Assembly: GCF_000981785.2 (NCBI RefSeq)
Contig: NZ_CP011304.1
Span: 1,800,001-1,832,000, forward strand
Direction of reading: 5' to 3'
DNA from: Microcystis aeruginosa NIES-2549
GTDB lineage: Bacteria > Cyanobacteriota > Cyanobacteriia > Cyanobacteriales > Microcystaceae
Length of the DNA: 32,000 bases
Below the pieces are notes generated by a model that saw nothing but the letters and a program-made list of their open reading frames with translations, ran no database searches and was not told the origin of the DNA. Positions within the stretch are counted from its first letter, which is position 1; every line of letters starts with the position of its first letter. This document shows, piece after piece, positions 1-29,661 of the stretch. Position numbers and translations under genes: made by a program.

Positions 1-1091
1 AGGAAAAACTGACTCAAATTGCTCAAGCGGAGCAAAATCTGGCAGCACTCAGAAGAACCTTAAATTTACAAAGAGAAGAGAAACTGACTCAAGTTGCCCA
101 AGCCAAACAACAGTTAGAGGATAGCAACACCGCTTATAATTTAGCAGAATTGCGCTTACAAAAAGCCTTGAGGGAAGTCGAACGTTACCAGAATCTTTTC
201 CATAATGGGGTGATAGCGGAAGTTCGGGTCGTTGAACAGGAAAATATCGCCGATGAAAGACAAAGTATTTGGAAGCAAAGTCAAGCAGATATTGAGCAAG
301 CCAGACTGCGATTAGAAGAGCAGAAAAGCAGTTATGAGAGAATTGTTAATCAAGGGAAGGCGGATATTGAGCAAGCGGAGTTACGATTAATCGAACAAAA
401 GAGGATTTATCAGAGAATTGTTAATCAAGGGGAAGCGGACATTGAGCAAGCGAAGTTGCGTTTAGCCGAGCAAGAGAATAGTGTTCAAACCCTTACTCAT
501 GCGGGGGAAATTGCTCTGTCTAAAATTCAAGAACAGCTAAAAAGTTTGGATAGCCAAATCAGTAGTCTTAAATCTGAGGTGACGCAAACAAAGAAAGAAA
601 TTGATTCTTTGAAGTTTGAGTTAGAGAAACGGATTGTTAGAGCCCAAGAAGGAGGCACTATTTTTAGTTTGCCGATTACTGGGGTGGGAGATGTGGTACA
701 ACAAGGAGGAATGATTGTAGAAATAGCGCCCCAAAAAGCGGATATTTTATTGAAAGCAGAAATGGCCACTACACAAAGTGGTTCATTACAGAAAGGAATG
801 GCGGTTAAGATGAAGTTTGATGCTTATCCTTTTCAGGACTATGGGGTAGTTGATGGAAGTTTAATTAAAATTTCCCCAACCACCAAAATGCAAGAAACAT
901 CTCAGGGACGAGTAGCAATTTATGAACTAGAAATTGAGTTAAATAAAACTTGTATTCCTAGTGGAAATGACTGTATTCCATTACGTCCGGGAGATACGGC
1001 TACGGCTGAGGTGGTGGTGCGTCAGCGTCGCGTTATTGATTTTATTCTTGACCCATTCAAGAAGTTACAAAAAGGAGGTTTAGAATTTTAG
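1..1091 (+). CDS. HlyD-family membrane-fusion/periplasmic adaptor protein, 5' end cut by the window edge
   Basis: The frame of the listed ORF 150..1091 stays open back to nt 3 (EKLTQIAQAEQNL...), so the gene starts upstream of the window. A long coiled coil is followed by a beta-rich C-terminus (GGMIVEIAP, LRPGDTATAEVVV), as in type I secretion adaptors. Confidence 0.8.
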   Translation, partial: EKLTQIAQAEQNLAALRRTLNLQREEKLTQVAQAKQQLEDSNTAYNLAELRLQKALREVERYQNLFHNGVIAEVRVVEQENIADERQSIWKQSQADIEQARLRLEEQKSSYERIVNQGKADIEQAELRLIEQKRIYQRIVNQGEADIEQAKLRLAEQENSVQTLTHAGEIALSKIQEQLKSLDSQISSLKSEVTQTKKEIDSLKFELEKRIVRAQEGGTIFSLPITGVGDVVQQGGMIVEIAPQKADILLKAEMATTQSGSLQKGMAVKMKFDAYPFQDYGVVDGSLIKISPTTKMQETSQGRVAIYELEIELNKTCIPSGNDCIPLRPGDTATAEVVVRQRRVIDFILDPFKKLQKGGLEF

Positions 1092-1170: not shown

Positions 1171-1908
1171 ATGTCACAATCTGTTGCCATTACTGCTGAA
1201 GATATTCTGAAACAAGTTAAGCTATCTCTTCAAATTCCCGATATAATCGAGTCTATTATTAGTCGTCAGATTATTACTGATGCAGCTACGGAAGCCGGGA
1301 TAACTGTGGATAATGAGGAACTTCAGCAAGCGGCGGATACTCTTAGACTTCTTCAGAAACTTCGTGGCGTACAAGAAACTTTTGCTTGGCTAGAGAAACA
1401 CCATTTGTCTGTTGATGATTTAGAAGAAATTGCCTACATCACCGTTATTTCCGAAAAGTTGATGACTCATCTATTTGCCGAGAAAGTTGAGCCTTACTTT
1501 TATGAAAATCAATTAGATTATACTGGGGTAGTGATGTATGAAGTGGTGTTAGACGATGAAGATTTAGCGATGGAATTGTTTTATTCTATTCAGGAAGAGG
1601 AAATGAGTTTCTATGATGTAGCTCACCAATATATTCAGGATGTAGAATTGCGTCGCCAAGGAGGATATCGGGGAATATTGTCTCGTAAGGATTTGAAACC
1701 AGAGATTTCTGCGGCTGTTTTTGCGACGACACCACCAGAAGTTCTTAAACCGATTGTGACTTCTAAGGGAGTGCATTTGATTTTGGTGGAGGAGATCCTT
1801 CAGTCCGAGTTAGATAATAAGTTACGCTGTCAAATTGTTTCAGAGTTGTTTGGCGAGTGGGTTATCAATCAAATTGAGTCAGTGTCAGTTGTCACCAATT
1901 TGGGATGA
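1171..1908 (+). CDS. PpiC/parvulin-type peptidyl-prolyl cis-trans isomerase (SurA-like N-terminal region)
   Basis: ATG at 1171 is preceded by GGAGAAAG. The C-terminal parvulin signature is GGYRGILSRKDLKPEISAAVF...VLKPIVTSKGVHLILVEEI. The gene follows the HlyD gene by 80 nt. Confidence 0.75.
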   Translation: MSQSVAITAEDILKQVKLSLQIPDIIESIISRQIITDAATEAGITVDNEELQQAADTLRLLQKLRGVQETFAWLEKHHLSVDDLEEIAYITVISEKLMTHLFAEKVEPYFYENQLDYTGVVMYEVVLDDEDLAMELFYSIQEEEMSFYDVAHQYIQDVELRRQGGYRGILSRKDLKPEISAAVFATTPPEVLKPIVTSKGVHLILVEEILQSELDNKLRCQIVSELFGEWVINQIESVSVVTNLG

Positions 1909-1924
1909 ATAGCACTAACACGAA

Positions 1925-1958
1925 TATCATCCAGTCAGGTCAACCTAACTGGATGATA
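1925..1958. terminator. Hairpin between the convergent PPIase and peptide genes
   Basis: 11-bp perfect inverted repeat TATCATCCAGT / ACTGGATGATA with a 12-nt loop, located between the stop at 1908 (+) and the stop at 2012 (-). Confidence 0.5.
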
Positions 1959-2011: not shown

Positions 2012-2197
2012 CTAATCCCAACAAATAGAGATAGAGCGCCATCTGGTTGTTTTATTTTGCCAACAAATAGTGATAGAACCACCGCCACCTAATGTATCAA
2101 GCATTTCCGAATCGGTCAAGTCAGTAAGGTAACTCTCAGAATCGGAGAACAAATCTGCACCAGCAGGACGTAAATCAGAAATAGTAATGTTAGCCAT
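2012..2197 (-). CDS. Double-glycine-leader (bacteriocin/RiPP-type) precursor peptide, 61 aa
   Basis: Translation MANITISDLRPAGADLFSDSESYLTDLTDSEMLDTLGG|GGSITICWQNKTTRWRSISICWD. It has an acidic leader with L(-15), L(-12), E(-8), M(-7) and GG(-2,-1), and a Ser/Thr/Cys/Trp-rich core. GAGGA lies 9 nt upstream of the ATG. HlyD and PPIase genes are adjacent. Confidence 0.8.
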   Translation of the reverse strand: MANITISDLRPAGADLFSDSESYLTDLTDSEMLDTLGGGGSITICWQNKTTRWRSISICWD

Positions 2198-2328
2198 TTT
2201 CGGTTCCTCTTGGAATAAGTTTTACTTTGAGGTAATCAGATTAATTATGCTCTTCCTTTCCCTATGATTATTATTGTTGCCTAACTCTCAAATAATGACA
2301 ATAGCTTGAGCAACTTTAAGGTTCATCT

Positions 2329-2347
2329 AACTAGCACAATTATGTCT
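2329..2347. promoter_or_regulatory. Conserved motif copy 1 (AACTAGCACAATTATGTCT), upstream of the peptide gene
   Basis: Perfect 19-nt repeat of 2439..2457. The core ACACAATTATGT is a 10/12 palindrome. The minus strand reads AGACATAATTGTG, containing a CATAAT -10-like hexamer. Confidence 0.4.
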
Positions 2348-2438: not shown

Positions 2439-2457
2439 AACTAGCACAATTATGTCT
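2439..2457. promoter_or_regulatory. Conserved motif copy 2 (AACTAGCACAATTATGTCT)
   Basis: Identical to copy 1 and exactly 110 nt away. The flanking sequence is unrelated. Confidence 0.4.
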
Positions 2458-2641: not shown

Positions 2642-3004
2642 ATGAGTGGTATTAACAGAGAAATATATCTAGAAAACCGAACCAGTCTGATTGACAAACA
2701 TTTACCCGAAACCGAAAAATCCCAAAGAGAACTGGAAATCGAAGGAATCGTCTATTTGTTTAACAATCGCCAGACAATGGAGAGAGTGGCAGAGGAAATT
2801 AAGCAAAGAGGAGAGAGAACGGGAGCAGCAGATTCAGAAGACAAATACGAACGCTATGGATTATTTTTTGCCGAACCAATTGGGTATATCCTAAAATTAG
2901 ATGGAACGAGAATCCCTCTCCACTATGGAGAAATAAAAATAAAAAAAAGCACAGGAAAATATCATGTCATACCTCGTACCAGACCGCGCACCACAAAATC
3001 CTGA
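2642..3004 (+). CDS. Hypothetical protein, 120 aa
   Basis: ORF with charged, non-repetitive composition. It overlaps the next ORF by 41 nt and contains an A8 run at 2941-2948. No family recognised. Confidence 0.45.
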   Translation: MSGINREIYLENRTSLIDKHLPETEKSQRELEIEGIVYLFNNRQTMERVAEEIKQRGERTGAADSEDKYERYGLFFAEPIGYILKLDGTRIPLHYGEIKIKKSTGKYHVIPRTRPRTTKS

Positions 3005-3254
3005 AAACGCAAAAACGCAAATTACGCCAACAGAAAAAACACAATGGGAATTTGCCGAAATCTGGGTAGATCCTTGGCTTTCACCCCCCTATATTCTGAT
3101 GTTAGTTAAAGAACAATCCGGTAAATTCTCGATTCAAAATCCCGCACAAAACTATCAATCTATCTTTACCAGCGATACTTACGAAGAAAGTCTTATGTGG
3201 TTACTGGAAGATGAATATGAGCGAGTCACAGGTCGCTTTTGCCAACCAGAGTAA
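2964..3254 (+). CDS. Hypothetical protein, 96 aa
   Basis: ORF in the +1 frame relative to 2642..3004. Its frame is open from 2943, immediately inside the A8 run. No family recognised. Confidence 0.45.
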   Translation: MSYLVPDRAPQNPENAKTQITPTEKTQWEFAEIWVDPWLSPPYILMLVKEQSGKFSIQNPAQNYQSIFTSDTYEESLMWLLEDEYERVTGRFCQPE

Positions 3255-3407: not shown

Positions 3408-4511
3408 TCAGCTTGCCAACTCTAATCCCTGATAAACATCCTCAGAATCAGCATTCAAATAAGGACGCTGCCAATCAATCCCCAACCCAGAAAACTGCTC
3501 AGAAATAGCAGCAATCCGACCCGCCGCAGAATTGTCCTCCTGTTGCCAAGCCATCAACAACCCATTGGCTATAATCTGACAGCGATTCATCCCAAAACTT
3601 TCCTCACTGCCAAACTTTTTGTCCGGTTCCTCCGCTAACCCCAATCCCGGTGCTAACTCCAGAGTAAATAAAGGTATTTCAGGCTTAAAAACAGACTGAT
3701 TCTGCTGATAAACATTAGCCACAACCTGCCTGACCAACTCATAATCTGTTTTGCCAAAATAAAGCACCCCAGCATCATACCGTTGATAATCAACCGGATT
3801 ATACAAAGCCTTAAAACTAAAAGGAATGCCCCTCTCATTTAACCTTTCAGTCAACCCAGCCATCACAGCCACCGCACCTTCAGGAGTAACATTAAAATAG
3901 AGCCGCACCATCGCTTCCTCTCTCTGTAAACCGGCATTACCCACCGCCATATAAAAGCCATTTTGCACCAAATTCTTAGGCATCAAAATTGACACAACAT
4001 CCCCCACAGCCGCCGCTTTTTCAGACTCTTGAAGATGCTTGTCCCGTTGGATATGCAGTCGCAAACCGCCCTTAGTCACAGCCAAACTGCCATCGGTTTC
4101 CTCTCTCAAAATTGACCAACCTGAATCAAAATATCCCTCCCCCTTGTTCGCTGCTTCCAACTGTAAATAAAAGTCCATAGCTACGCCAGCAAAACTATTA
4201 TTCTCCAAATCTAATTGCTGACCCTTATTCTCAGAACCTAATGCTTGCGATGCCTGCATTGACCCATTATAATAAATGCCATAAAGAAAACTCCGCAACT
4301 GTAAGCTCATATATTTATCCTGTATTTCCTTCGGTAAAGCCTGAATCCTAGACAACATCTCAGCAGGCAGTTCCCAGGGTTGATAATCAGGATGACGAAT
4401 CGAAAAATTAGCGGAAATTTCGACATTTTCAACAATATCTAACAAAACTTCCTTTAACCGACCTCTAACCTCAGGGGCTAAATGATGGAATTGAGAATTA
4501 AGTAATGACAT
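3408..4511 (-). CDS. HopA1-effector-family-like protein, 367 aa; candidate phospho-Ser/Thr lyase (LanX/TvaD-like)
   Basis: Long ORF 24 nt downstream of the kinase gene on the same strand. The segments VRLYFNV...GIPFSFKALYNPVDYQRYDAGVLYF match my recollection of proteins annotated 'T3SS effector HopA1 family'. This is recalled, not searched. Confidence 0.55.
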   Translation of the reverse strand: MSLLNSQFHHLAPEVRGRLKEVLLDIVENVEISANFSIRHPDYQPWELPAEMLSRIQALPKEIQDKYMSLQLRSFLYGIYYNGSMQASQALGSENKGQQLDLENNSFAGVAMDFYLQLEAANKGEGYFDSGWSILREETDGSLAVTKGGLRLHIQRDKHLQESEKAAAVGDVVSILMPKNLVQNGFYMAVGNAGLQREEAMVRLYFNVTPEGAVAVMAGLTERLNERGIPFSFKALYNPVDYQRYDAGVLYFGKTDYELVRQVVANVYQQNQSVFKPEIPLFTLELAPGLGLAEEPDKKFGSEESFGMNRCQIIANGLLMAWQQEDNSAAGRIAAISEQFSGLGIDWQRPYLNADSEDVYQGLELAS

Positions 4512-4535: not shown

Positions 4536-5705
4536 TTAAACTTTGCCAACAACAGAAGAATTAATCTGATTTAACTGAGTAGCAGTAGCGCCAAAAATCG
4601 TGGGCATTGACGATTCAGGACGAGATAACAAAGCCTTGGCTACCTGAAGCATAGCAATCCCCGTATTATTAAAGGTTTTTTGATACTGAATCATTGCCAA
4701 AATCCCAATAATTAAAGAAAAACCAGCCAACTGTACCACTTGCTTTAAGAAATCAGGACGATATTCTAAGATTTCTGGGAAAGTTTCTAAATAAGCTAAA
4801 GTTAACCCACCGATAGATGGCTGCAGCAATTCTAGGGGAGTAGTGGCTAGTCGCAGAGACTCTTCAATACTGAGAGAATTACTAATCACCAAGCTACCCA
4901 ACCAAATTTGTAGATAACTAGCGATTGCCATTCCCAAATCAAATGCTGGATCTCCCCAATCAGACCTTTCCCAATCAATCAACCGGATCGCATTTCCATT
5001 AATATCTTCCCAGTTTCGATTCAGAAGAATATTATTCAGCTTGATGTCATTGTGAGTCAGACAAATAGGAGAAATAGTTTCACTGGCTCGATGAACTGCT
5101 TCTCCTAAGCTATCATATCGTTGATAAAGTGCAAAAAATTTCAATCCATCCATCGGAGCCATACCAAAAATTTCAGGACCGATCCTTTCCAAACTCTCTA
5201 ATAATAGCGGAGATACTTTCGGTTTTCCAGCAAACTCTTCTTTGACAAAAAATTCCCGATAAATACTCTGATTCCAGGTATCACGGTGAATTGTCGCCAA
5301 ACAACTGCCGATTTGAGTAGCAACCTGAGCCGGAAAGAGATTCTCTTTAGAATAAAACTCTGCTAAATCCTGATAATTATCCAGATAAGTAGAAACTAAA
5401 ATTGAGTTATCAGCATCGTGGAGCAGTAATTCTGGCAGAAAACTACGCCAATGGTCAATTTCAGGAAAGTTCTCTAGAAATTTGGGGATTCGCCATTCCC
5501 CAAAAAACTCACCCACCGTTTCCTTTTCTAAATTAATAAATTGTTCTTGTTTAACCAGTAACTTTCGCCCCTCTGGTAAAGTCACTAATAAGTTAAAATT
5601 TTTAGCCTGAATCTGCTCTACTCCCGGATTTTCTTGTGAGCGATCGCAGATTTTTTGGTCGATTAAATAGTCATAAACATTTTGAGAACTTAACACAAAT
5701 TTCAT
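4536..5705 (-). CDS. APH-fold (aminoglycoside-phosphotransferase-like) kinase, about 389 aa
   Basis: Brenner/catalytic-loop motif LTHNDIKLNNILL and the Mg-binding region IDWERSDWGDPAFDLG. I prefer the ATG at 5705 (MKFVLSS...) over the TTG at 5723 in the track. Confidence 0.8.
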   Translation of the reverse strand: MKFVLSSQNVYDYLIDQKICDRSQENPGVEQIQAKNFNLLVTLPEGRKLLVKQEQFINLEKETVGEFFGEWRIPKFLENFPEIDHWRSFLPELLLHDADNSILVSTYLDNYQDLAEFYSKENLFPAQVATQIGSCLATIHRDTWNQSIYREFFVKEEFAGKPKVSPLLLESLERIGPEIFGMAPMDGLKFFALYQRYDSLGEAVHRASETISPICLTHNDIKLNNILLNRNWEDINGNAIRLIDWERSDWGDPAFDLGMAIASYLQIWLGSLVISNSLSIEESLRLATTPLELLQPSIGGLTLAYLETFPEILEYRPDFLKQVVQLAGFSLIIGILAMIQYQKTFNNTGIAMLQVAKALLSRPESSMPTIFGATATQLNQINSSVVGKV

Positions 5706-5810
5706 AATTACAATTATTCTCAAATATCGCTGATCTGTTTTTATTGATTTTAATTATAATTGATGATAGCCTTATTGCCAAGCTATTCATCTGCATTAAA
5801 AAAACATAAT

Positions 5811-5826
5811 TAACACAATTATGTCT
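5811..5826. promoter_or_regulatory. Conserved motif copy 3 (TAACACAATTATGTCT), upstream of the kinase/HopA1-like operon
   Basis: 15/17 identity with copies 1 and 2, in the same orientation relative to the downstream minus-strand gene. It lies about 105-120 nt upstream of the ATG at 5705. Confidence 0.4.
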
Positions 5827-23789: not shown

Positions 23790-25350
23790 TGTCTTGCTGC
23801 TGCGGTTAGTTTTTTGATTTTGACATACTCCCACCGTCAAGCTACGCTGTGACGGGGGATTCTTTCCAGATCACTATCGGAAATTCCTTGTTCAACGAGA
23901 CAGCTTAGATTCTCAATGTCTCCACTGAAAATCCAGAGGCCGGACTCTCCCAAGGCGTTTGGGTCGGTTTCTGTTTGCCCAACAGTACCGTTGAGATGAT
24001 TTCCCAAATATTTCAACCCTTTTTTAAGAATATTTATTGCTGCATTATGATCCCTATCTAAGACTGTTTGACAATTAGGACATTGATGAGTTCTAGTGCT
24101 TAAGGTTTTTTGAACTCTCGTCCCACAAACTGAACAATCTTGAGAAGTGAAATGCGGTGGTACAGCAACACAAACAATCCGATAAATCTTAGCAAAATAA
24201 TTCAACCATTCAGTGAATTGATACCAAGAAGCATCGGAAATCGACTTAGATAGCTTACGGTTTTTGACTAAGTTTCTTACCTTTAAAGCTTCATAGACTA
24301 CCAGATCATTAGACTGGACTAACGCCAAAGCGTCTTTAATTGCTTTGTCTTTACGTTGTCTTGATACTTTAAGATGAAGCTTGGCTACCTTTACCCGTTG
24401 CTTATGATAGTTTTTAGACTGTTTCTTTCCTTTACGGAATTTCTTAGATAATCGTCGTTGTGCTTTTTGAAGTCGTTTTTCTGACTTTCTTAAATAACGT
24501 GGATTCTCTACAGTATTACCTTGAGCATCGGTATAAAATTCCTTTAACCCTAAGTCAATTCCTGTTATTTGTCCCGTCGGTTTATGGTATTCTTGCCGTT
24601 CTACGTCAATCAGAAACTGGCAATAATAACCGTCAGCACGTCTAACAACTCTTACCCGTCTAATCTGTTGTTCTGAATAATAAACTAAGGTCTTTTGACT
24701 ACACCATAAATCAAATTCTCCTGCTTTAAAGCCATCAGTAAATCTGATTTTACGTCGATCATCAGATAGTTTGTAGCCTGTTAGTTTATACTCAACATCT
24801 CGACTTCGCTCGACGTTGACCCTGAGCGAAGCCGAAGGGTCAACCGAACGACTATGCTTTTTGAACCGAGGAAAACCCTTTTTCCCAAGTATCTTAGCAT
24901 GACAATTCTGGTAAAACCGATTAATTGATTGCCAGGCTCTATCAGCAGCCGATTGACGAGCTTGAGAGTTTAATTTATTAACCCAAGGTGTCTCTTTATT
25001 GTTAGCTAGTACCGAGCAAAGTTTTTGGAGATCATTGCGGGTTGTACCCTTATGATCCATCCAATAACGAACACAAGAGTTACGCACAAACTGAGATGTT
25101 CTAATTGCTTCATCAAGCCGGTGATATTGCTCTAGTGTCCCGTTTTTTAGCTTTGCTTCTACGACTAGCATCTAACAATTCTCGACCATTGGTTAAGTAG
25201 ATTATAACACAGTTTGTCCACAGATGGTGGAATTAAACCGATACTCCGTTGCTGACCCTTCGACTTCGCTCAGGGTCATTGATATTCTGGTCGGATTTCA
25301 TCCCCCGCTAATTTTTGTGAGTATCTTATCGAAAAATGTAGCGGGGGTAT
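23790..25350 (-). mobile_element. TnpB-only IS200/IS605-family (IS1341-group-like) element; boundaries approximate
   Basis: A tnpB ORF with no tnpA. Subterminal hairpins lie on both sides: CCCCGTCA...TGACGGTGGG at about 23836-23865, and CCCCCGCTA...TAGCGGGGG at 25302-25348. An extended -10 box TGTTATAAT on the minus strand (25201-25209) precedes the ATG. Confidence 0.6.
23837..25171 (-). CDS. tnpB: RNA-guided endonuclease TnpB (IS605 OrfB family)
   Basis: RuvC-like motifs GIDLGLK, VVYEAL and RDHNAAINIL, plus the zinc ribbon CSVCG...CPNC. The N-terminus MLVVEAKLKNG...AIRTSQFVRNSCVRYW is typical of the family. Confidence 0.88.
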   Translation of the reverse strand: MLVVEAKLKNGTLEQYHRLDEAIRTSQFVRNSCVRYWMDHKGTTRNDLQKLCSVLANNKETPWVNKLNSQARQSAADRAWQSINRFYQNCHAKILGKKGFPRFKKHSRSVDPSASLRVNVERSRDVEYKLTGYKLSDDRRKIRFTDGFKAGEFDLWCSQKTLVYYSEQQIRRVRVVRRADGYYCQFLIDVERQEYHKPTGQITGIDLGLKEFYTDAQGNTVENPRYLRKSEKRLQKAQRRLSKKFRKGKKQSKNYHKQRVKVAKLHLKVSRQRKDKAIKDALALVQSNDLVVYEALKVRNLVKNRKLSKSISDASWYQFTEWLNYFAKIYRIVCVAVPPHFTSQDCSVCGTRVQKTLSTRTHQCPNCQTVLDRDHNAAINILKKGLKYLGNHLNGTVGQTETDPNALGESGLWIFSGDIENLSCLVEQGISDSDLERIPRHSVA

Positions 25351-27692: not shown

Positions 27693-28394
27693 TTAGACAG
27701 CAAATAGTTGTAAAAATTCTTTGAGTTCATTTAATACCTCATGCTCAAAGTTCCAAATATGACGTTTGTTTTTCATAACATAATCAAATCCATTCATACT
27801 GCATTTCCTGCCAGCTTGTTTTTTGTCTTCTGTGGAACAGGTATCAAATCGTAAATAGTTACTAATCCAAAACTTATCAAAATCTTTGTCTTTAATCGAT
27901 TTTTCTTGCTTGTTTAAACAATTTCTCCAGTCTTCTAAACAATCCGCATAGGTGGAATCTTGATTTTTAATCTTCTTGAGAACTGTTTCTAGTTCTCCTT
28001 GTCCTTCCACATTGGTAAAATAACAAGCAAATTCTGTGATTTGATCTTCTATTGTTGTCAATCTATAAAGCTGACTGGTTTCCCTAATATCTTCCGCTTC
28101 TGGATACACCTTTTTCAGACAATCATTAAGCCAATTTAGTCGCTCTGTCTTAGTATCAGAATCTTGATCGATAATAATACCAACTTTAGGGATAGCTTTT
28201 TTACCAAGAGTCGCCTTAATTTCATCGAAAGTGCTGGTTAATTTAGCTTTATCTAAACCCTGTAAACATTTATAGTCATCTTCCTCAAAGCAAATCGGTT
28301 TATCTAACTGAATTTTGTTAATATTTAAGTATTTTACTAGGGCTTCGATAAAAATTTTATCATTCTTGCTCTCGACGATTAATAAGTTACTCAC
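27693..28394 (-). CDS. TOPRIM-like small protein (DUF4435/DUF3226-like), partner of the upstream ATPase
   Basis: N-terminal LLIVESKNDKIFIEAL (conserved Glu) and VGIIIDQDSD (DxD-type acidic cluster). The start overlaps the ATPase stop by 8 nt. Confidence 0.6.
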   Translation of the reverse strand: MSNLLIVESKNDKIFIEALVKYLNINKIQLDKPICFEEDDYKCLQGLDKAKLTSTFDEIKATLGKKAIPKVGIIIDQDSDTKTERLNWLNDCLKKVYPEAEDIRETSQLYRLTTIEDQITEFACYFTNVEGQGELETVLKKIKNQDSTYADCLEDWRNCLNKQEKSIKDKDFDKFWISNYLRFDTCSTEDKKQAGRKCSMNGFDYVMKNKRHIWNFEHEVLNELKEFLQLFAV

Positions 28395-29481
28395 CTCTCA
28401 CCTCATTGCCATGTTTTAAGGCGTACTCTAAAGTGCTTAATTGTCTTTTAATACCAATAATTTTATCAGTTCTGGGACTCCTTGCTAGTTCAAAATAGGC
28501 CCCCTGTTCTGGATAATATTCTAACCCCACATCGGCAAAAGCTTGGATCATCTCTAAACTATGGGTTGTGGCAAAAATTTGGCTATCTAGTTCGATAGCT
28601 AATCGGAATAAAGTTTTCCAAATATCTGGGTAAGCAGTATAGTGAAGACCATTTTCTATTTCATCGATAAAAATAATTTTTTTAGGATTGATGAGTAGAG
28701 CAAAAATCATCTCTATCAGACGATTAATAGCTTCACCAAACAGAGATACGGGTAGGCGTTTTCTCTCTTTTCTTTTCAGATATAAATTTGGTTCACCCAG
28801 AAAAAAACTTTCTATTTTTTCAATGGACGGATCGAGAATTTGTAGAGCTTTTAGCACTTCTTCTTCCTGTTCATTAAAAACTATTTTAGTATAGGACTCG
28901 CTCAATTCTTCCAAAGATTTATTGACAGATGCGGCAATGATTACTGGTTCCTCATCACCCCCATTAGGTAAAGCTAGTATCTCCTTAGAACTAGCAATTA
29001 AAAAATAGTTCAGTTGCTCATCATTTGAGTCATGATCATGGTCAAAACTTGTGTGAATATTTAAGATAGAAATAACTGATTTATCTTTAGCGATAAAATC
29101 GTATAATTTTTGCCAGTCTTCAGAGATGCCTAGAACACTATCTTTAAGAGAACCAGAAATCGATATTTTTACCAATTTGTCTCCTTGGTTAGATTGGGAG
29201 CCTTTTAACTCAATAATATTTTTTCTATCAAGATTGAATAATAAATCATCCCAAGCATTTTTGGGAACAGCCCGAACAACTGCTAAAGATTGCCTACGAA
29301 TGATTCCTCTGATGTAGGGATGAATAGTATTTGGATAGGGATAACTATACAAAAATATTGCCTCTAACAGGGCAGTTTTCCCTGAATTGTTTTTACCACC
29401 AATTAAATTAACTCGCTCAAAACCTTCAATTTTGGTATGCTCAAAACATCTAAAATTACTAATTTCAATATCCTTAATCAT
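28387..29481 (-). CDS. ABC/SMC-type AAA ATPase (AAA_15/AAA_21-like)
   Basis: MIKDIEISNFRCF start; Walker A GGKNNSGKT; signature-like VSLFGEAINRL; Walker B IIFIDEIENGLH; H-loop ATTHS. I use the ATG at 29481 rather than 29535. Confidence 0.8.
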   Translation of the reverse strand: MIKDIEISNFRCFEHTKIEGFERVNLIGGKNNSGKTALLEAIFLYSYPYPNTIHPYIRGIIRRQSLAVVRAVPKNAWDDLLFNLDRKNIIELKGSQSNQGDKLVKISISGSLKDSVLGISEDWQKLYDFIAKDKSVISILNIHTSFDHDHDSNDEQLNYFLIASSKEILALPNGGDEEPVIIAASVNKSLEELSESYTKIVFNEQEEEVLKALQILDPSIEKIESFFLGEPNLYLKRKERKRLPVSLFGEAINRLIEMIFALLINPKKIIFIDEIENGLHYTAYPDIWKTLFRLAIELDSQIFATTHSLEMIQAFADVGLEYYPEQGAYFELARSPRTDKIIGIKRQLSTLEYALKHGNEVRGE

Positions 29482-29661
29482 GTTGACCTCTGGGCTGAAT
29501 AAGCATAAACTTAGGGTTAGGAATAAAGCTGGCAAGATAGGGATTTTTTTACTTAATTCTAGACGAGAATTGCCTCCAACTCTGAAAACGGTGACTATCC
29601 CCCACCGAAACTGCCGCCCTAAGAGATAATAGAAACAGGGATTTATTTACATTTCTTCATC

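Follow-up and report, generated by a model that had tools for sequence, protein, structure and literature searches.

What does a short open reading frame (ORF) with an internally repeated core encode, and what would become of its product in a cell that also carries a neighbouring kinase and lyase? The ORF in question lies in a 32,000-nucleotide (nt) stretch of Microcystis aeruginosa NIES-2549 DNA (contig NZ_CP011304.1, positions 1,800,001 to 1,832,000), hereafter the window. An initial annotation, made from the letters alone, took it for a double-glycine precursor peptide whose two near-identical Cys-containing units might form small (methyl)lanthionine rings or, alternatively, be joined by one disulfide. 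We put at roughly 0.55 the probability that the ORF is a genuine precursor of a ribosomally made peptide modified after translation (RiPP) of the cyanobacterial 'type-B' class V-like group, and that it would give a two-ring lanthipeptide by a five-step pathway involving the adjacent kinase and lyase genes (the K/Y pair).

The minus-strand ORF at 2012-2197 translates exactly as had been reported, into a 61-residue product, MANITISDLRPAGADLFSDSESYLTDLTDSEMLDTLGGGGSITICWQNKTTRWRSISICWD, followed by a TAG stop codon. The peptide is 100% identical to the hypothetical protein MYAER_1771 of M. aeruginosa NIES-2549, and the cyanobacterial origin presumed in the initial annotation is right. It begins MANITIS, its leader ends TLGG and the core GGSITICWQNKTTRWRSISICWD follows; the leader matched the hidden Markov model (HMM) of its family with E = 3.8e-25, which upholds its description as a double-glycine precursor. 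A run of four glycines had been thought to leave the cleavage site ambiguous, a difficulty that family alignment largely settles: Glu(-8), Met/Leu(-7) and the GG pair are in register on G37-G38 across 238 peptides. Sister alleles read GG/AG, GG/RG and GG/GAG at the cleavage site (slash, cut), and their cores start with GG, AG, RG or GAG before the first Ser. Because the alignment registers the first GG as the double-glycine site, the predicted core is a 23-mer, most likely GGSITICWQNKTTRWRSISICWD; trimming to a 21-mer may still occur.

The duplication of the core is not a chance resemblance. Its two halves, SITICW and SISICW, are identical at 5 of 6 residues, a level reached by 91 of 200,000 shuffles of the same core, so the repeat noticed earlier is non-random at the peptide level. 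The corresponding DNA 17-mers match at 16 of 17 positions, a score that shuffling the ORF's codons 2,000 times never produced, and an ungapped 35-nt repeat (2001-2035 versus 2043-2077) shows 77% identity. The DNA duplication thus stands, with one correction: the second 17-mer sits at 2060-2076 and not at 2061-2077. The core contains six Ser/Thr and two Cys and ends in C-W-D, and the initial annotation had read correctly that in both halves the Cys is preceded by Ser/Thr at -4 as well as at -2 (negative offsets are N-terminal to the Cys, and core residues are numbered from the first residue after G38).

A peptide search returned 77 clusters in which a near-invariant leader, MANITISDLRPAGADLFSDSESYL...GG, is joined to very different cores, with matches from Microcystis, Limnospira/Arthrospira, Raphidiopsis, Nodularia and metagenomes. 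The initial annotation had suggested looking for homologous cores in other cyanobacteria, and when the search matches were pooled with peptides from related loci, 23 distinct cores with two S-x3-C units were recovered, from Microcystis, Trichodesmium erythraeum (GSFTFCGKRISWSICWGY) and a distant metagenome-assembled genome (GSVSICFNTKKTRRISITICW). Neither half varies at Ser(-4) or at Cys in any of the 23, and Ser, Ile(-1), Cys and Trp of the second half are likewise invariant. The -2 position is occupied by Thr or Ser in 23/23 first halves; in second halves it is Thr or Ser in 19/23 and Gly in 4/23. Between the S-x3-C-x hexads the linker is 3 or 8 residues long and never of another length, and Thr13 within it is invariant in the 18 long-form cores (18/18). 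Judged from these alignments, the core duplication is evolutionarily maintained.

Pooled over four Microcystis alleles, the ratio of nonsynonymous to synonymous polymorphism (pN/pS) was 0.36 in the leader as against 3.95 in the core, values that come from small counts and non-independent pairs; the core replacements leave Trp, Cys and Ser(-4) untouched. RiPP and bacteriocin precursors typically pair a conserved leader with a core that diversifies on a fixed scaffold, and these alleles appear to follow that pattern. The Ser residues of the leader motif DSES[Y/F] were considered as a target of the K/Y pair and rejected: Asn or Thr replaces Ser in distant leaders, so the motif fits recognition better than modification. 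Some precursors from Limnospira and metagenomes (P0030-P0032, P0047, P0048) are annotated about 42 residues longer (MNFKVAQ...), the conserved 5' untranslated region being open in frame. The matching stretch in the window holds stop codons, which marks the extension as an annotation artefact.

The arrangement of Ser/Thr around Cys was compared over 229 non-redundant cores in 78 families, each family being counted once. Ser or Thr occurs in 226 of the 229 cores and Cys in 143. Of 50 unrelated Cys-containing families, 35 place Ser/Thr at -4 or -3 relative to Cys; shuffling gave an expectation of 19 ± 3 and did not reach 35 in any of 1,000 trials. The -2 offset was not enriched (ratio 0.82, the observed count being reached by 832 of 1,000 shuffles), and the family-level shuffles gave no significant Ser/Thr excess at +4 from Cys. 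A single Cys is the modal number in 31 of 47 Cys-containing families, and 23 of these 31 carry Ser/Thr at -3/-4. Since single-Cys cores dominate, intramolecular disulfides cannot explain the family. Putative thioether rings spanning i to i+3 or i+4 can account for the spacing. Enrichment at -4/-3 and its lack at -2 also make Ser(-4) the likely ring partner in S-I-T-I-C, with Thr/Ser at -3 as the likely partner in other cores, and the Ser/Thr at -2 is more likely to be a free dehydroalanine (Dha) or dehydrobutyrine (Dhb), or a structural residue.

The K/Y pair lies about 1.2 kb upstream of the precursor, its two genes on the same strand and 24 nt apart. The lyase has a sole relative in the PDB, LxmY (9dk1_B, 'Lyase'; E = 4e-11 for a single-sequence query, 1.7e-9 for a profile), and entry 9DK1 is the LxmK-LxmY lexapeptide dehydratase (PMC12141560). 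In CaoY, residues R187, K219 and R229 are required for phosphate elimination and Y236 is conserved (Liang et al. 2022, PMC9486802). R203, K234, R244 and Y251 of the Microcystis protein align to these four with a spacing of 31/10/7 versus 32/10/7, and they are kept in 81-83 of 83 cyanobacterial orthologues. By homology, the protein is a standalone HopA1-family lyase with the putative class V catalytic Arg/Lys/Arg/Tyr.

In the kinase, the motifs H224-N-D226-x-K228-x-x-N231 and D250-W-E252 are kept in 75-78 of 78 orthologues, and because these catalytic motifs of the APH fold are conserved the enzyme is predicted to be active. What adjoins the lyase is a standalone APH-fold kinase with intact active-site motifs, its activity being predicted. 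Its best NCBIfam match is LxmK (NF038156), at 76.7 bits versus a cut-off of 315, and its 2,278 database homologues are all named as generic phosphotransferases. An AlphaFold2 model had a predicted local distance difference test score (pLDDT) of 80.8 and a predicted TM-score (pTM) of 0.85; a Foldseek search with it gave the top TM-scores to LxmK (0.63/0.71), with an E-value tied with those to methylthioribose (MTR) kinases. Sequence comparison did not establish the kinase as an LxmK orthologue (E = 0.64), and the structure search is no more than suggestive. The HopA1/APH pair is predicted to be the split dehydratase of class V lanthipeptides, and, as in that class, a precursor with Ser/Thr and Cys in its core adjoins it.

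HopA1 relatives were found in 158 stretches of species-representative genomes, and the best 80 loci, 54-97% identical and nearly all with cyanobacterial titles, were kept; ORFs were clustered over these and the window (81 loci). The module comprises HopA1 (81 loci), the kinase (80), a PpiC-like protein (64), an HlyD protein (55), an exporter of about 905 residues with cyclic nucleotide monophosphate (cNMP)-binding, C39 peptidase and ATP-binding cassette (ABC) parts (54) and a helix-turn-helix (HTH) protein (42). The kinase adjoins HopA1 in 80 of 81 loci. With the leader HMM, family peptides were detected in 72 of the 80 loci; 60 loci have them downstream of HopA1 on the same strand, 54 of these within 3 kb. 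The reverse approach, starting from peptides with a similar leader, placed the K/Y pair directly upstream in 5 of 6 informative loci. The exception is Cylindrospermopsis raciborskii (locus L092), where an ISL3 transposase occupies the place of K/Y and the PpiC, HlyD, ABC and HTH genes are kept.

Seven further Microcystis loci have identical gene order, six with doubled-core alleles (L082-L087) and one with a different core (L089). The order is kinase, lyase, a 96-residue ORF with a DUF6972 gene, and precursor, with PpiC, HlyD, ABC and usually HTH on the converging strand. These sister loci encode a 564-residue HlyD, a 904-residue cNMP, C39 and ABC protein and a 192-residue HTH protein; L082-L084, L086 and L087 have an undamaged exporter. 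As the window begins within its HlyD gene, the cNMP-C39-ABC exporter and the HTH gene are expected to lie further left.

A short upstream element connects the precursor to the K/Y genes. The window holds exactly three copies of the box GACATAATTGTG, all on the minus strand and each upstream of either the kinase or the precursor; none of 100 shuffles gave as many. Its longer form reads AGACATAATTGTG[C/T]TAGTTA, and the distance from the box end to the -35-like hexamer is 33-34 nt for kinase and precursor alike. Across the 80 loci there are 64 copies versus about 6 expected; 23 loci from at least seven genera or lineages carry it at the same two kinds of position, and 330 nt upstream of the precursor are alignable between genera. 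The common conserved box indicates that the kinase-lyase operon and the precursor form one regulon. It is likely an operator or activator site, for which the HTH protein of the cluster is a candidate binder.

From the intact gene, the conserved repeat, the enzyme homology with its catalytic residues, the synteny, the shared box and the spacing statistics, all of them observed, we infer a pathway; every chemical step in it, the ring topology, the cleavage site and any biological activity are conditional. The precursor would be transcribed from its own promoter, with the kinase-lyase operon co-regulated through the common box. The APH-fold kinase would phosphorylate core Ser/Thr, and the HopA1-type lyase would eliminate phosphate to give Dha or Dhb. 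Cys7 would then add to Dha3 and Cys21 to Dha17, producing two five-residue lanthionine (Lan) rings of the size of nisin ring A with a basic linker between them, while Thr5, Ser19 and Thr12/13 may stay as Dhb or Dha. Lacking a cyclase gene, the locus would depend for ring closure on control by the substrate or on help from the K-Y complex. Such assistance has been reported for rosin, in which a Lan ring is formed without a Lan cyclase (PMC12291118), and LanC-free class V pathways have been reported (2025 review). Finally, the C39 domain of the ABC exporter would cut after G37-G38 and the 23-mer would leave through HlyD. The PpiC-like protein was considered as the missing cyclase and is an unlikely one; it keeps company with the exporter where K/Y is lacking (L092), and it also occurs in the enzyme-free group I clusters of Wang 2011 (PMC3140520).

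Several findings weigh against the two-ring lanthipeptide. No LanC, LanX, LanD or LanM gene was found in the window or in the seven sister Microcystis loci (L082-L087, L089). The kinase is not specifically LxmK-like in sequence, with a profile E-value of 0.64 to LxmK (9dk1_A) and an NCBIfam score far under the cut-off. Near K/Y, 31 of 78 core families have no Cys, and the peptide itself has exactly two, a number compatible with one disulfide. The exporter is disrupted or truncated in the sister strains of L009, L085 and L089, being split by an insertion sequence (IS) in L089 and truncated in L085, and the pN/pS figures rest on just four alleles and small counts.

The lack of a cyclase gene agrees with the idea that K/Y dehydrate the peptide and nothing cyclises it, the two Cys staying free or forming one disulfide between the halves, so that the product is a linear or disulfide-looped dehydropeptide. 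The even Cys number of the peptide fits it too, as does the abundance of Cys-free cores beside K/Y: with 31 of 78 families lacking Cys, the conserved function of the pair is not to form thioethers and would be dehydration alone. We nonetheless consider a product without rings unlikely, for thiols near a Dha at i-4 tend to add spontaneously, as is established lanthipeptide chemistry with rosin as a precedent, the family-wide coupling of Cys to Ser/Thr at -4/-3 has no explanation without rings, and single-Cys families predominate. The same odds apply, in our judgement, to an unmodified double-glycine peptide (acting as a toxin like the class II bacteriocins, as a signal, or in the matrix or biofilm in the manner of EbfG) that is exported by C39-ABC/HlyD with at most a Cys7-Cys21 disulfide, K/Y acting on other substrates. 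Bacteriocins of that class have no dedicated modification enzymes, whereas here K/Y is adjacent, syntenic and shares its box with the precursor. The pair stands directly upstream in each locus whose sequence extends that far (the window, L009, L012, L013, L082-L087), no other candidate K/Y substrate is encoded nearby, and Ser(-4) is invariant in both halves though a disulfide needs none. On the other side, the exporter module does occur without K/Y, both in L092 and in group I clusters (Wang et al. 2011, PMC3140520), cyanobacterial GG-motif peptides can have roles other than as bacteriocins (PMC12267927), and a hairpin disulfide would suit the symmetry of two Cys.

Modification by K/Y could also take another course: thioethers between the halves (Cys7 to Dha17/19, Cys21 to Dha3/Dhb5), rings through the -2 residue or Thr13, or stable phosphorylation. 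Thr13 is invariant in the long forms (18/18) and Thr/Ser at -2 nearly so, and there is no cyclase to enforce regiochemistry. Yet both halves persist whether the linker has 3 residues or 8, and this speaks for independent local rings; family-wide there is no enrichment at the -2 offset, and the intact catalytic residues of the lyase argue against stable phosphopeptides, so that we regard these outcomes as distinctly improbable. Least credible of all is a decaying or silent remnant, with the gene not expressed or the peptide not exportable in NIES-2549. Exporter loss or IS disruption and precursor swapping in Microcystis sister strains are what one would cite for it; in the window, however, the ORF with its ribosome-binding site and upstream boxes is intact, as are the kinase, the lyase, PpiC and as much of HlyD as the window contains; the same allele recurs in an independent metagenome, and purifying selection acts on the leader.

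The leading hypothesis is still that of small (methyl)lanthionine rings: the upstream and syntenic K/Y pair and the common box, which the initial annotation did not have, speak for the rings that it proposed, as does the enrichment of Ser/Thr at -4/-3, and the lack of a cyclase gene speaks against them. The lack of enrichment at -2 refines the proposal by shifting the likely ring partner to Ser(-4). The disulfide proposed beside them is compatible with a two-Cys peptide and fits the family poorly, given that 31 of the 47 Cys-containing families are of the single-Cys kind.

The features of the locus are collected in Table 1.

Table 1. Features of the precursor locus and its surroundings (window coordinates; a dot marks a feature without strand).
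Feature	Position	Strand	Remarks
HlyD-type membrane-fusion protein, C-terminal part	1-1091	+	Cut by window start; family match
PpiC/parvulin-like protein, export module	1171-1908	+	245 residues (269 from TTG at 1099); Pfam Rotamase, weak TIGR04500 match
15-bp hairpin between convergent precursor and PpiC-like genes	1925-1958	.	Likely acts as a bidirectional terminator; T-tail weak
Precursor peptide gene MYAER_1771	2012-2197	-	Leader residues 1-38, nt 2084-2197; predicted core residues 39-61, nt 2015-2083; stop 2012-2014
Core half 2, S17-I18-S19-I20-C21-W22 (SISICW)	2018-2035	-	Proposed Lan ring Ser17-Cys21; Ser19 possibly Dha
Core half 1, S3-I4-T5-I6-C7-W8 (SITICW)	2060-2077	-	Proposed Lan ring Ser3-Cys7; Thr5 possibly Dhb
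Shine-Dalgarno-like AGAGGA	2205-2210	-	8 nt 5' of precursor ATG; kept in cross-genus upstream alignment
Promoter-like TTGTCA-17-AACAAT, precursor	2273-2301	-	9/12 consensus match only; 34 nt downstream of proximal box
Proximal GACATAATTGTG box	2335-2346	-	Within 19-nt exact repeat 2329-2347; 139 nt upstream of precursor ATG
Distal GACATAATTGTG box	2445-2456	-	Within 19-nt exact repeat 2439-2457; 249 nt upstream of precursor ATG
DUF6972 gene and overlapping 96-residue ORF	2642-3254	+	DUF6972 2642-3004, ORF 2964-3254; opposite strand, between lyase and precursor
HopA1-family phospho-Ser/Thr lyase, LanY-like	3408-4511	-	367 residues; Pfam PF17914, 3.5e-66
APH-fold kinase, LanK-like	4536-5705	-	389 residues from ATG at 5705 (395 from TTG at 5723); Pfam PF01636 (APH)
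Promoter-like TTGGCA-17-TATAAT, kinase-lyase operon	5753-5781	-	11/12 consensus match; 33 nt downstream of box
Third GACATAATTGTG box	5814-5825	-	About 110 nt upstream of kinase ATG; same placement in other genera

The DUF6972 gene and its 96-residue partner occupy the same spot in the window and in eight sister Microcystis loci (L009, L082-L087, L089) and were found in no other genus; PADLOC and NCBIfam yielded nothing of note for either of them or for PpiC. In a metagenome locus (L094) an Imm1-like pair and a UPF0150/HicB-like pair stand in this spot, which may collect small toxin-immunity or toxin-antitoxin cassettes. Across Microcystis the K/Y pair is 95-97% identical, yet the precursors can be unrelated (L002, L003, L005 and L006 versus the window and L009); some strains encode a two-peptide set of the form TTPTT...C, others a GVAVGLAISH core lacking Cys, and others again the doubled core. 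The PpiC/HlyD/ABC module is not whole in several strains, where it has shrunk to a PpiC remnant or is IS-split or truncated (L009, L085, L089). The HopA1 proteins of Arthrospira platensis PCC 7345 (L007) and of Raphidiopsis brookii D9 (L008) share 92% and 88% identity with that of Microcystis across different cyanobacterial orders, and the 5' region of the precursor is alignable. This similarity suggests that the cassette may have moved by recent horizontal transfer among bloom-forming cyanobacteria.

Accessory genes recur over the 81 loci: a 146-residue Cys-rich protein in 28, an aldo-keto reductase in 27, a radical SAM/SPASM enzyme in 21, Nif11 peptides in 18 and LanM in 7. The class II LanM (DUF4135 and LanC-like, 972 residues) lies directly downstream of HopA1 in its 7 loci (L067, L070 and five others), together with multi-Cys cores, and these would be hybrid K/Y and LanM clusters. 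In about a quarter of the K/Y loci (L093, L040, L016 and others) the radical SAM/SPASM enzyme, the 146-residue Cys-rich protein and Nif11-leader peptides directly adjoin K/Y, and a second RiPP pathway may share the exporter there.

Beyond about 5.8 kb the window carries housekeeping genes (BacA, peroxiredoxin, Dps, Ser/Thr kinases, amidase, Tgt, ClpP and others). An IS605-family OrfB/TnpB ORF of 444 residues with a Cas12f-like TNB domain (23837-25171, minus strand) adjoins clpP. At 27693-29535, also on the minus strand, a 382-residue AAA_15/AAA_21 ATPase gene overlaps that of a 233-residue DUF3226 protein, and by their domains the two look like a defence-type pair with an OLD/AbiEii-like ATPase. 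The sole Rfam family over its gathering score in the window is L10_leader (RF00557; 31543-31659, plus strand, 48.5 bits), and the window scan found no family near the precursor locus.

A more far-reaching interpretation, which we find rather doubtful, is that K/Y, the GG leader and the module of peptidase-containing ABC transporter (PCAT), HlyD and PpiC make up a distinct cyanobacteria-wide, cyclase-free RiPP class ('class Vc'). Topology would be written in the core as Ser/Thr-x2-3-Cys and the rings would close without LanC, LanX or LanM; the doubled SI(T/S)ICW core would be a minimal modular example with two autonomous nisin-ring-A-like rings, and a rapid diversification of cores from one Microcystis strain to the next would reflect their use in allelopathy or signalling within blooms.

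The locus would not surprise a lanthipeptide specialist. A 61-residue precursor with one kinase and one lyase is, however, about the simplest test case for a very large and uncharacterised class of cyanobacterial clusters: 'lanthipeptide-class-v' is the largest predicted cyanobacterial RiPP category, with 28.6% of predicted RiPP products (2026 preprint), and the class V lanthipeptides characterised so far are from actinobacteria only (2025 review). If S-x3-C units do cyclise without a cyclase, the two-ring module would be a compact engineering scaffold, and the strain-to-strain turnover of cores in Microcystis would then point to a role in bloom ecology. Should K/Y pairs turn out not to be dehydratases, a very large set of genome-mining calls would be mislabelled.

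How does the locus compare with known systems? In nisin, S3-I4-S5-L6-C7 becomes ring A, a Lan ring from 3 to 7 with Dha at 5. The spacing is the same and the residues are nearly the same as in S3-I4-T5-I6-C7 and S17-I18-S19-I20-C21, a likeness that is one of resemblance only. Nisin is a class I product made by LanB and LanC, and its adjoining ring B is needed for the lipid II pyrophosphate cage. The Microcystis core has the ring-A-like pattern alone, with no following T-x2-C and hence no ring B, and the whole 32-kb window encodes no LanC (PF05147), LanM, LanB, LanD/flavoprotein decarboxylase or second APH protein (LanX). Labionin of class III was rejected as well, the motif S-x2-S-x2-5-C being absent from a core that reads S-x-T-x-C and no LanKC being encoded in the window, as was aminovinyl-cysteine (AviCys) chemistry, whose motif is absent from the core. 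Prochlorosins and other cyanobacterial class II products (ProcM, MalM) share with the present family a conserved leader with a GG site, hypervariable cores and C39-ABC export. They differ in being made by LanM with a zinc-dependent LanC-like domain and in having Nif11/NHLP leaders; LanM occurs in 7/81 K/Y loci and not in the window locus.

Closer in enzymology is class Va (lexapeptide LxmK/LxmY, cacaoidin CaoK/CaoY, pristinin, rosin), in which a standalone APH kinase and a HopA1 lyase form a split Ser/Thr dehydratase, as is predicted here, the R/K/R/Y residues are kept and the core is rich in Ser, Thr and Cys. Class Va also calls for LanX, the flavin decarboxylase LanD and a C-terminal Cys for Avi(Me)Cys. 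The Microcystis locus has a single APH gene, no flavoprotein and no methyltransferase or reductase gene, and its core ends in C-W-D. Class Va producers are actinobacterial with an unrelated leader, whereas here the host is a cyanobacterium, the double-glycine leader is of the kind used by a C39-ABC exporter and the kinase is very distant from LxmK. Class Vb (LanK/LanY and LanC, for example mSmoA) provides K/Y dehydration with (Me)Lan cross-links only and no AviCys, which is what the genes lead us to propose here; unlike class Vb clusters, neither the window nor the sister Microcystis loci contain a LanC gene.

The two halves of the system have each been met before. The exporter half was described in group I/II 'bacteriocin' clusters, which have the same long cNMP-C39-ABC exporter, HlyD, SurA/rotamase protein and double-glycine precursors; that account uses the word 'kinase' 0 times, does not mention the kinase/HopA1 pair and proposes no modification chemistry (Wang, Fewer & Sivonen 2011, PMC3140520). 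The precursor half corresponds to the putative class V LanAs called 'type-B', which are all cyanobacterial, share a common leader, have diverse cores and stand beside co-occurring LanK/LanY, none of their members being characterised (Liang et al. 2022, PMC9486802). The precursor family of the window is very probably this group, matched by description rather than residue by residue. Its kind is thus already recognised by genome mining, and the chemistry of the cyanobacterial group is not reported in the literature searched. Type-B LanAs were presented as an N-terminal alignment figure (Fig. S6 of PMC9486802), and that paper describes no doubled S-x3-C core, export module, cis box or spacing statistics; nothing in the literature searched seems to anticipate the doubled core, the box or the statistics on spacing.

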